DNA of 12,736 nucleotides from IMG/VR virus record IMGVR_UViG_2675903606_000010; one strand, 5' to 3'. The position numbers were made by a program. Positions 6,001 through 9,000 of this stretch are shown here, piece by piece. The DNA comes from a virus (taxonomy: Duplodnaviria; Heunggongvirae; Uroviricota; Caudoviricetes). The first letter of the stretch is position 1, and each line of letters begins with the position of its first letter.

Positions 6001-9000
6001 GGTGATAACGCCAAATGTGCCGCGTATTACACGGCGGAAGATAACGCGCTGGCGCATGACTGGTCAGAACGTCTTGCGGAGCTTAAAGGTGCTGCCTTTG
6101 GTAATCCCCCATACAGCCGCGCCAGTCAGCATGAGGGGCAATACATCACCGGCATGCGTTACATCATGAAACATGCCAGTGCCATGCGTGATAAGGGCGG
6201 GCGCTATGTTTTCCTGATCAAAGCTGCCACCAGCGAAGTGTGGTGGCCGGAAGATGCGGACCATATTGCTTTTATTCGCGGGCGTATTGGTTTTGAACTG
6301 CCTGCCTGGTTTATCCCGAAGGATGAGAAGCAGGTGCCGACAGGCGCTTTCTTCGCTGGTGCTATTGCTGTTTTCGACAAGACCTGGAAGGGACCGGCAA
6401 TCAGCTACATCGGGCGCGATGAACTTGAGGCATGTGGTGAAGCCTTTCTGGTGCAGGTTCGCCAGCAGGCGGAAAAACTGGTCAGGGAGATGGCGGCATG
6501 ACGACGTTAACTCAATGCCAGCAGCAGGTGCTGGATATGCTGATTTCTTACCAGAAAGAACGTGGCTTCCCGCCAACCAATCAGGAGGTGGCAACCATGC
6601 TGGGATACCGTTCAGTGAATGCAGCGGTGGAGCATCTTCGCGCACTGGAGAAAAAAGGCGTCATCACGATAAAGCGTGGCGTGGCCCGGGGGATAACGCT
6701 TCATACCGCGGTGAAGGACGATGACAGCGAGGCGGTCGGGATTATCCGCTCACTGCTTGCCGGTGAGGAAAACGCCAGGCTGCGTGCCACCCACTGGTTA
6801 CATGAGAGAGGCCTGAAAGTATGAAACTGATCCTACCTTTCCCGCCCAGCGTGAATACGTACTGGCGACACCCTAATAAAGGGGCGTTTGCTGGTAAAAG
6901 CCTGATAAGCGCGGCGGGGCGCAAATTCCAGAGCGCGGCGTGCGCAGCAATAGTTGAGCAGTTACGTCGTCTGCCAAAACCAACGTCGGCACCTGCTTCA
7001 GTGGAGATCGTGTTGTTTCCTCCGGATAACCGGATCCGCGATCTGGACAACTATAACAAGGCGCTGTTTGACGCCCTGACCCACGCGGGGGTGTGGGAAG
7101 ACGACAGCCAGGTGAAAAGAATGCTGGTGGAGTGGGGACCGGTTATCCAGAAAGGGAAGGTCGAGATCACTATCAGTAAGTATGAGAAACCGGCGGGTGC
7201 AGCCGCCTGATCAAGAGGAGAAACGAAGTATGAATAATCTGATGGTCATTGATGGTATTGAAGTTCGTCGTGATGCTTATGGGCGTTACAGCCTGAACGA
7301 TCTGCACAGGGCAGCCGGGGGAGAACAAAAAAACCGCCCGAAATACTGGCTCTCCAATAAGCAAACCTGTGAATTGATTGAACAACTTTTCACCGAGGGT
7401 GGAATTCCGCCTCTGGAACAAAATCAACCAGTTAGCGTCATTAATGGCGGAAATAACCAGGGGACGTATGTCTGCAAAGAACTGGTGTATGCCTATGCAA
7501 TGTGGATCAGCCCGTCATTCCATCTGAAGGTGATCCGTACTTTCGACATGGTAACCAGCGCACCGGAAAAATTATCCGGACAGGCTGCTGACAAGATGCA
7601 GGCTGGCGTGATCCTGCTGGACTTTATGCGCCGGGAATTAAATCTGTCTAACTCATCAGTGCTTGGAGCCTGTCAGAAGCTTCAGGAGGCTGTTGGCTTA
7701 CCGAATCTGGCACCGCGCTATGCCATTGATGCTCCTGCTGACGCGCCTGATGGCTCAAGTCGCCCCACGCTGTCGCTGAGTGCACTGCTGAAGCAGTATG
7801 GTATCCGCCTGACGGCTAATCAGGCATATCACCAGATGGTGAAGCTGGGGATCGTTGAACAACGCGAACGATACAGCCGTACCGCGATTAACAACATCAA
7901 AAAATTCTGGTCGCTGACGGCGAAAGGCTGCATGTTCGGCAAGAACATCACCAGTCCTGCAAATCCGCGCGAGACGCAGCCGCATTTCTTCGAATCCCGA
8001 TTCCCTGAGCTGTTAAAGCTGCTCGATACCGTTCATTGAGGTGACCGTGAGAGCACTACTGACCCCTGAAATTGCCCCGCGTATGGGGATCGTATTGTTC
8101 AGGCCAGGTTCAGAGCTGATGCCCCTGTTTATGCAGGGGCGTGTTCTGCTGGAGCCTGAGCCGGAACGTTATTCATCTTTCGCCAGTGGTGCCGTTCCGG
8201 CGGCATCACAACCGCTGGCGGATGATCCTGCCGTTCGGGCCGTGTTCCGCAATGAGGCAGTGATCCGTCGTGCTGGTGGCGTGGAATGTCTTGAAAGCTG
8301 GTTACGTCGTGAAAAAGGCTGCCAGTGGCCTCATTCCGACTGGCACAGCGAGAACATGACCACAATGCGACACGCTCCGGGCGCAATCCGTCTGTGCTGG
8401 CACTGCGATAACCAGCTGCGCGATCAGTTCACGGAACGGCTGGAATCAATGGCAACGGATAACTGTGCCCGCTGGGTGTTGTCTGTTGTGCGTCGGGATC
8501 TCGGTTTTGATGATAGTCACGTTGTGACAATGCCGGAACTGTGCTGGTGGCTGATTCGTAATGACCTGGCGGATGCCTTACCGGAAAGTGCAGCCCGTAA
8601 GGCACTGAGATTACCAAAGCCTGTTGTGCCGTCTGTCACCCGGGAAAGTGACCTTGTGCCTTCGGTTCCTGCCACCAGCATCATCCAGGATAAGGCAAAA
8701 AAGGTGCTGGCGCTGAAAGTGGATCCGGAGTCGCCGGAGTCTTTTATGTTACGCCCAAAACGCCGCCGCTGGGTTAATGAAAAGTACACGCGCTGGGTTA
8801 AGACACAGCCGTGTGCATGTTGTGGAAAGCCTGCTGATGATCCCCACCACCTGATAGGCCACGGTCAGGGTGGAATGGGTACAAAAGCGCATGACCTCTT
8901 TGTGTTGCCTTTGTGCAGAAAGCATCACGACGAGCTGCATGCGGATACCGTGGCATTTGAAGAGAAGTATGGCTCCCAGCTGGAGCTGATATTTCGTTTT

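Follow-up and report, generated by a model that had tools for sequence, protein, structure and literature searches.

The stretch of DNA analysed here, IMG/VR record IMGVR_UViG_2675903606_000010 (hereafter the window), comprises 12,736 nucleotides of a virus of the Caudoviricetes and contains a small plus-strand gene (6498-6824) whose 108-residue product carries the DNA-binding domain of LexA. The window comes from a lambdoid prophage of Escherichia coli that resembles SfV and mEp460 in type; it covers the early-right and nin regions and the start of the late region, and its best genomic match adjoins tRNA-Thr and an integrase gene. The LexA-like gene lies in the nin region between the genes for a Dam methyltransferase and the RusA resolvase, and it shares an ATGA overlap with each of them, so that the translational coupling noted in an earlier interpretation made without database searches (the sequence-only reading) is present on both sides. 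The Shine-Dalgarno-like AGGGAG lies 8 nucleotides from the ATG. These and the other features of the window are collected in Table 1.

Table 1. Features of the window that bear on the LexA-like gene, in window positions.
Feature	Position	Strand	Basis or remark
Gene for 108-residue LexA-DNA-binding-domain protein	6498..6824	+	PHROG 362; RefSeq 'LexA family transcriptional regulator'; Pfam
Shine-Dalgarno-like AGGGAG	6484..6489	+	within the 3' part of the Dam gene; read from the sequence
Residues 1-70, LexA-type winged helix-turn-helix domain	6498..6707	+	PF01726, 1LEA, AlphaFold2 model, Foldseek match 3JSO
Recognition helix VNAAVEHLRALEK, residues 40-52	6615..6653	+	Ser39 directly precedes the helix
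Acidic flexible linker, residues 71-75	6708..6722	+	AlphaFold2 pLDDT < 50
Two-helix hairpin, residues 75-108 (helices 75-88 and 93-103)	6720..6821	+	AlphaFold2 pLDDT ~88-90
Phage Dam methyltransferase	5815..6501	+	stop overlaps LexA-like start (ATGA, 6498-6501)
RusA resolvase	6821..7210	+	start overlaps LexA-like stop (ATGA, 6821-6824)
Terminator-like hairpin and T-run	3891..3908	+	upstream in the early-right operon; consensus match only
Cleavable CI-type repressor of the prophage itself, S24 domain	1920..2594	-	PF00717 E=2e-26; annotated 'LexA family protein'
Strong SOS box TACTGTAAAAATAAACAGTG	11094..11113	.	perfect CTGT-N8-ACAG; over codons 3-9 of the methylase; candidate target
Beta-class N6/N4 DNA methyltransferase, 350 residues	11086..12138	+	PF01555 E=1.7e-39; SOS box at its 5' end

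The identity of the N-terminal part was supported by profile, sequence and structure searches. In Pfam, residues 1-65 matched positions 1-65 of the 65-position LexA_DNA_bind model (PF01726) with an E-value of 2.9e-19 and 69 bits against a cut-off of 23.7, which places the protein in this family above the gathering threshold and over the whole length of the domain. Among the structures of the PDB, the DNA-binding domain of LexA (1LEA) matched residues 2-69 with an E-value of 6.9e-16 (phmmer), and this alignment reproduced exactly the pairing of the recognition-helix regions, SVNAAVEHLRAL against SPNAAEEHLKAL, that the sequence-only reading had quoted. Structure prediction, which that reading had put forward as a check alongside alignment to LexA, led to the same family: the AlphaFold2 model, computed from an 18-sequence family alignment with a mean predicted local distance difference test score (pLDDT) of 83, showed the LexA topology, with helices at residues 6-22, 28-35 and 40-52 followed by beta strands at residues 56-58 and 66-68, and its top PDB match in Foldseek was the LexA-operator complex 3JSO, with a root-mean-square deviation of 1.0 Å over 68 residues at 50 % identity. 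The LexA G85D structure 1JHF was also found among the matches of both phmmer and Foldseek. The fold is thus that of E. coli LexA, with clear homology over residues 1-70, the span to which the sequence-only reading had assigned the LexA N-terminal domain.

The remainder of LexA is missing. The Pfam search of the 108-residue protein gave no match to Peptidase_S24 (PF00717), and the lexA equivalog model TIGR00498 of NCBIfam was matched over positions 1-91 of 203 only, at 70.8 bits and below the cut-off of 110.95. Of the features that mark LexA proper, the protein therefore has the winged-helix domain and lacks the S24 domain with Ser119 and Lys156, a conserved Ala84-Gly85 cleavage site and a score at the level of the equivalog. 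In comparison to E. coli LexA, it is a phage nin-region gene product in which a helical hairpin replaces the C-terminal domain that serves as peptidase and dimerisation domain, the Ala-Gly pair is not conserved, and Glu44 is replaced. These findings confirm that the protein is a LexA winged-helix head without the protease body. Lacking a Ser/Lys protease domain and a conserved Ala-Gly pair, it is expected to be insensitive to RecA-stimulated self-cleavage, as had been supposed from the sequence.

The alignment produced by HMMER extends to approximately residue 90 and pairs SLLAGE with the RVAAGE of LexA, which contains the Ala84-Gly85 scissile bond, and the window protein itself reads LLAGE where LexA has A84-G85. 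A retained LexA cleavage site in the tail was nevertheless rejected, since the Gly is replaced in close relatives (LLANEE, LLAKEE), the motif is lost at 38-50 % identity (MVERES, LLTRKE, MIDDQP, LVAELP), and the region is predicted by AlphaFold2 to be helical, unlike the cleavage strand of LexA.

The sequence-only reading was correct in that no S24 domain follows the winged helix, but to describe the tail simply as unrelated falls short, as purifying selection acts on it and its two helices are conserved as a module. A tail-only profile (residues 71-108) gave no significant Pfam or PDB match. Hydrophobic positions are conserved in both helices (79, 80, 82, 83, 86 and 87 in the first; 93, 97, 100 and 101 in the second), A97 and L101 are invariant, and the apolar pattern persists across 38-96 % identity. 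As this apolar surface would be too large for a free hairpin of 30 residues, it suggests a buried interface, most simply one of homodimerisation, and the tail hairpin is probably a family-specific dimerisation module. A 71-residue version that is limited to the winged helix and lacks the tail is encoded in the nin-like region of Edwardsiella phage EPP-1 (locus L300, 19995-20210), which indicates that the tail is not universal among phage LexA-head proteins. In addition, many representatives carry two tandem LexA_DNA_bind stretches in one chain of 140-350 residues (including P0132, P0133, P0149, P0152, P0153, P0156 and P0159), and in these the LexA head may form a pseudo-dimer within a single chain.

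We examined the conservation of the gene in the loci fetched for this analysis, where all 201 of 201 full-length copies, representing 93 alleles, were intact. The ratio of nonsynonymous to synonymous polymorphism (pN/pS) was 0.12 for the pooled 201 copies, 0.04 for the winged helix and 0.25 for the tail, and the complete architecture, tail included, is kept down to 38 % identity. These data effectively refute the notion that a captured lexA gene is decaying here and has no function, to which we give practically no credence: the protein does look like a truncated LexA, with TIGR00498 aligned to less than half of its length, but the intact copies, the low pN/pS, the full-length architecture maintained in distant members, and the good Shine-Dalgarno sequence and coupled translation all speak against decay.

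The gene is widespread, being present in 2,233 of 5,426 complete E. coli genomes (41 %) with as many as four copies per genome, and in 50 phages of the INPHARED collection, including SfV, SfII, SfIV, mEp460, cdtI and several Stx2a phages; all 15 of the 15 Stx2c-converting phages in that collection carry it. The product matches PHROG 362 ('transcriptional repressor') with an E-value of 1.1e-59, residues 1-108 on positions 1-106 of 106 and thus with the tail included, and it is 97-100 % identical to SfV orf42, to the mEp460 'LexA DNA binding domain protein' and to others. Existing records label it 'LexA DNA binding domain protein', 'LexA-like protein' or 'LexA family transcriptional regulator', and a survey of Shiga toxin (Stx) phages lists it as pham 237 (pfam01726, 15 phages), grouped with CI-type repressors (PMC8136144). 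A literature search for functional studies of SfV orf42, the mEp460 gene or pham 237 gave catalogue mentions only. As a sequence, then, the gene is not new, having already been annotated and catalogued; what is new here is the conserved tail module, the family-wide substitution of Glu44, the timing argument from operon position and the enrichment of SOS boxes in the phage backbone. The database proteins P0022, P0092 and P0098 show the phage Dam domain (PF05869) fused to LexA_DNA_bind, which is probably not a genuine fusion but the outcome of a frameshift or miscall at the ATGA overlap. The left arm of the prophage (window 103-1484; locus L001, 182-4146) carries yfdP, yfdQ, yfdR, yfdT and an integrase gene at tRNA-Thr, and a PerC-like homolog of yfdN lies at window positions 5354-5848. 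This yfd-type arm, together with the yfdN homolog, marks the prophage as an intact relative of the phage behind the CPS-53/KpLE1 remnant of E. coli K-12.

The position of the gene bears on when its product would be made. Consensus scans showed no sigma-70-like site on the plus strand between 2500 and 7543 and a terminator-like hairpin 5' of the gene, which forms part of the early-right operon under repressor control. The repressor that carries the S24 domain is encoded on the opposite strand and is distinct from the LexA-like gene. Given that there is no promoter-like site of its own, that the operon is the early-right one and that a terminator-like site precedes it, the protein is predicted to be a delayed-early product and not a product of the lysogen, its synthesis being expected only once the prophage is derepressed or a cell is infected. 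This argument tells against the non-inducible lock of the sequence-only reading if it is taken to mean that the protein is present in the lysogen and keeps phage genes with SOS boxes, or the SOS regulon of the host, silent even after DNA damage. Such a lock would fit the loss of the cleavage machinery and the SOS boxes found on phage accessory genes (see below), but the gene is coupled deep within the early-right operon, and constitutive expression would leave 41 % of E. coli strains SOS-deficient. E. coli is generally SOS-proficient, including O157 strains with inducible Stx phages. We therefore regard a lysogen lock as very unlikely.

The neighbourhood of the gene raises the possibility of a function in DNA metabolism, rather than in transcriptional regulation, in which the winged helix would target or modulate the neighbouring replication or recombination functions (Dam, RusA, DUF968/HNH), or bind DNA structurally, as has been proposed for other small nin-region DNA-binding proteins. 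RusA is the 3' neighbour in 77 of 81 loci, and Dam the 5' neighbour in 54 of 79, its place being taken elsewhere by PerC. The phage mEp390 carries a 47 %-identical homolog in the same slot, in the order replication gene, LexA-like gene, RusA, DUF968/HNH and Q. In favour of an accessory factor are this synteny and the translational coupling with RusA, which extend to mEp390, the location of the gene directly 3' of replication genes, and the occurrence of LexA_DNA_bind-like domains inside replication-initiator-type proteins (the match to phrog_678 and the architecture of P0001). On the other hand, synteny is weak evidence because nin regions are mosaics of unrelated functions, and the retention of the sequence-reading residues, together with the pN/pS of the winged helix, suggests operator binding instead, so that we consider a DNA-metabolic role unlikely. 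In mEp390 (locus L299, 9131-10043), DinI-like and UmuD-like accessory genes are also encoded, a further SOS-related load in a phage that has a LexA-head protein. The Q antiterminator of the window (9008-9802; PF03589) additionally matches the DnaJ-type CXXCXGXG zinc finger PF00684 (E=1.6e-8), a match that passes the cut-off of this model.

We then considered which DNA the winged helix might read. The residues of LexA that contact bases are Ser39, Asn41, Ala42, Glu44 and Glu45 (PMC3091678). The LexA-like protein keeps four of these five, Ser39, Asn41, Ala42 and Glu45, whereas Glu44 is replaced by Val, and its recognition helix bears the signature S-x-NAA-x-EHL of the gamma/beta-proteobacterial type. 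On the basis of these residues, and of the wealth of SOS boxes in gene-bearing prophage regions described below, occupancy of SOS boxes by the protein is plausible. SOS boxes were scored with a position-specific scoring matrix (PSSM), a score of at least 18 being taken as a strong box. The box that the sequence-only reading had located at the start of the late-region methylase proved genuine, with a score of 22.2 that is above the median of the boxes from which the PSSM was made, and it was the only strong match in the window. Spaced CTGT-Nn-ACAG motifs were enriched in the window at n=8 only (2 observed against 0.18 expected, a number reached in 2 of 200 shuffles), with no enrichment at other spacings from 0 to 20, and a search for short palindromes between 5300 and 8100 gave no convincing alternative operator near the gene. 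The second perfect CTGT-N8-ACAG, CTGTAAGTAACCACAG, lies at 3580-3595 inside the open reading frame (ORF) 3477-4313 and is weak (PSSM < 10) because its spacer and flanks are G/C-rich.

The methyltransferase behind the box, with an N-terminal DPPY and a C-terminal FxGxG motif, is encoded between Q and the lysis genes. M.EcoGII, a prophage methylase of the same class with 349 residues, stays silent during lysogeny and does harm once it is expressed (PMC5778455). By analogy, control by LexA could explain the silence of M.EcoGII-type methylases in lysogens, and the case for the window methylase being M.EcoGI/GII is circumstantial, resting on its size, class and prophage location and on relatives in the same phage group.

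The association with SOS boxes extends to other phages. In 80 IMG/VR loci that carry the gene (1.25 Mb), 55 boxes scoring at least 18 were found in 41 loci, representing seven distinct sequences and at least three identified contexts: the start of the methylase, the interval after rusA and before a KilA-N variant, and the interior of an ORF for a CI-type repressor. In comparison, 80 loci of the lambda-NinG type, none with the gene, contained a single box in 1.25 Mb, and 45 long Q933-type loci without the gene contained two boxes in 0.76 Mb; among the Q933-type loci, a box was present in 3 of 3 with the gene and in 2 of 45 without it. Pooled, this amounts to 58 strong boxes in 1.3 Mb with the gene against three in 2.0 Mb of the two control backbones. 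The TACTGTAAAAATAAACAGTG box was also found in 25 related loci and at least 120 IMG/VR contigs. The gene was present in 27 of 27 INPHARED records with the SOS-boxed methylase module at 95 % or more, and in 28 of the 32 IMG/VR loci that have the methylase box and reach far enough upstream, with over 30 distinct spacings. Specific co-inheritance of the gene with the methylase box was considered and rejected, as the genes near it accompany the box at least as frequently. The association with SOS boxes is thus a genuine property of the phage backbone and does not single out the LexA-like gene.

One of these boxes, TACTGTATTTATGAACAGTG, lies directly 3' of rusA and before the KilA-N variant (locus L020, 12114-12133; 98 IMG/VR contigs), approximately 764 nucleotides from the LexA-like start, and the boxed KilA-N variant looks like a LexA-controlled gene of the antirepressor type. 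The sequence-only reading had named the KilA-N gene as a possible target in the present phage, and this part is not supported, because the window allele (~7230-8039) has no box and only the variant allele elsewhere has one. Another box, TACTGTTTTTACATACAGTA, with a score of 24.7, lies in the linker-coding region of a gene for a 230-residue CI-type repressor with helix-turn-helix and S24 domains (locus L002, 5586-5605; 20 of 80 loci), and this repressor gene belongs to a different immunity module.

The reading that we favour, although we hold it tentatively and would stop short of calling it probable, is that the protein is a RecA-insensitive, hairpin-dimerised surrogate of LexA, which is produced during lytic growth and takes over operators of the SOS type again. 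The protein would derive from a LexA of the enterobacterial type, having kept the operator-reading winged helix, lost the RecA-responsive domain for self-cleavage and dimerisation, and gained a two-helix hairpin that may supply dimerisation in its stead. Expressed from the early-right operon only after derepression or infection, presumably once the host LexA has been cleaved, it would bind CTGT-type SOS operators and re-impose repression on SOS-boxed accessory genes, namely the late-region methylase and, in other prophages, the KilA-N gene; host SOS genes might possibly be repressed as well.

Several points weigh against this LexA-surrogate reading. Residue 44 is V, A, F, T or Y in every tail-bearing member, in contrast to the Glu found in 10 of 12 full-length LexA representatives, and this family-wide loss means that specificity may have shifted; a literature search on the role of Glu44 gave nothing useful. 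The SOS PSSM was built from a set of approximately 29 E. coli boxes, though its strong matches are perfect or near-perfect CTGT-N8-ACAG, and all of the locus sets are lineage-structured. Co-occurrence with the methylase box was 26 of 31 for the LexA-like gene, 28 of 31 for PerC, 28 of 31 for RusA and 30 of 31 for DUF968, and about half of the gene-bearing loci lack any strong box within 10 kb. Finally, gp6 of the Bacillus thuringiensis tectivirus GIL01, the only characterised truncated LexA homologue of a phage that was found, binds a palindrome that is not a LexA site and acts as an activator.

The last of these points leads to the alternative that the window protein is likewise a phage-specific transcription factor of shifted specificity, which would act on its own operator in the phage or the host, independently of SOS boxes, to activate or repress a particular phage promoter. 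GIL01 gp6, described as a 'truncated homologue of LexA', binds GaCACAnnTGTGaC and activates the late promoter P3 (PMC6182141), and a literature search found no other experimentally characterised phage LexA-head protein. As in the window, gp6 is phage-encoded and expressed from an early operon, has LexA_DNA_bind only (PF01726, E=8e-14) and lacks a protease; unlike the window protein, it has 66 residues and no C-terminal hairpin. BLASTP gave no alignment between the two proteins at E <= 100, and they therefore represent independent captures of a host LexA head, that of gp6 coming from a Gram-positive LexA. A shift in specificity would agree with the substitution of residue 44, with the variation of residues 42 and 45 in distant family members, with the loci that have no strong SOS box nearby, and with the new dimerisation module, which could set a different spacing of half-sites. 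Against it, the search around the gene gave no conserved palindrome of another kind, CTGT/ACAG pairs were enriched at no further spacing, and the recognition helix is much closer to that of the host LexA than is that of gp6, which reads its own palindrome, with four of five contacts and half of the domain residues retained. Moreover, the gene is conserved at ~97-100 % across differing immunity, Q and late modules, which argues against a single target in a variable module. We consider a private operator rather unlikely on balance, yet it is the main rival of the LexA surrogate and clearly a less remote prospect than an accessory role in DNA metabolism.

To return to the LexA surrogate, comparable forms of LexA are known from the host. 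LexA(Ind-) mutants keep the SOS regulon off, and the free cleavage fragment, LexA 1-84, is a weakly binding monomer that is degraded. The likeness of the phage protein to these forms is one of functional analogy only, each presenting a LexA DNA-binding moiety that activated RecA cannot inactivate; the Ind- mutants retain the C-terminal dimerisation domain, whereas the phage protein has a conserved tail of its own that could restore dimerisation. A further parallel is provided by prophages whose accessory or antirepressor genes are under the control of LexA, as in the crosstalk of Gifsy-type phages (PMC3121763), the Tum of coliphage 186 and DinI-like morons (PMC7556043), since in the gene-bearing backbones, too, accessory genes such as the methylase and the KilA-N variant have strong SOS boxes. 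In those systems, however, the host LexA is the sole reader of the SOS box, and no phage-encoded LexA-type protein takes part.

In its broadest form, the surrogate would amount to a phage-imposed end to the SOS response, in which a RecA-proof, lytic-only and hairpin-dimerised protein present in ~41 % of E. coli genomes re-silences the host SOS regulon together with the SOS-boxed genes of phages. We offer this as a speculative and, at present, rather doubtful proposition. If it were true, the targets would be the late-region methylase, KilA-N antirepressor-like genes and possibly the LexA-controlled antirepressors of competitors, and many E. coli strains, including Shiga-toxin strains, would hold a lytic-programme switch that overrides the host response to DNA damage, with a bearing on competition between prophages, on SOS mutagenesis and on the expression of SOS-boxed phage genes. 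If the protein instead reads an operator of its own, it would be the second independently evolved phage re-use of the LexA head as a private regulator, after GIL01 gp6. Either way, the gene encodes an abundant, strongly conserved and uncharacterised regulator, and its value lies in function rather than in gene discovery.

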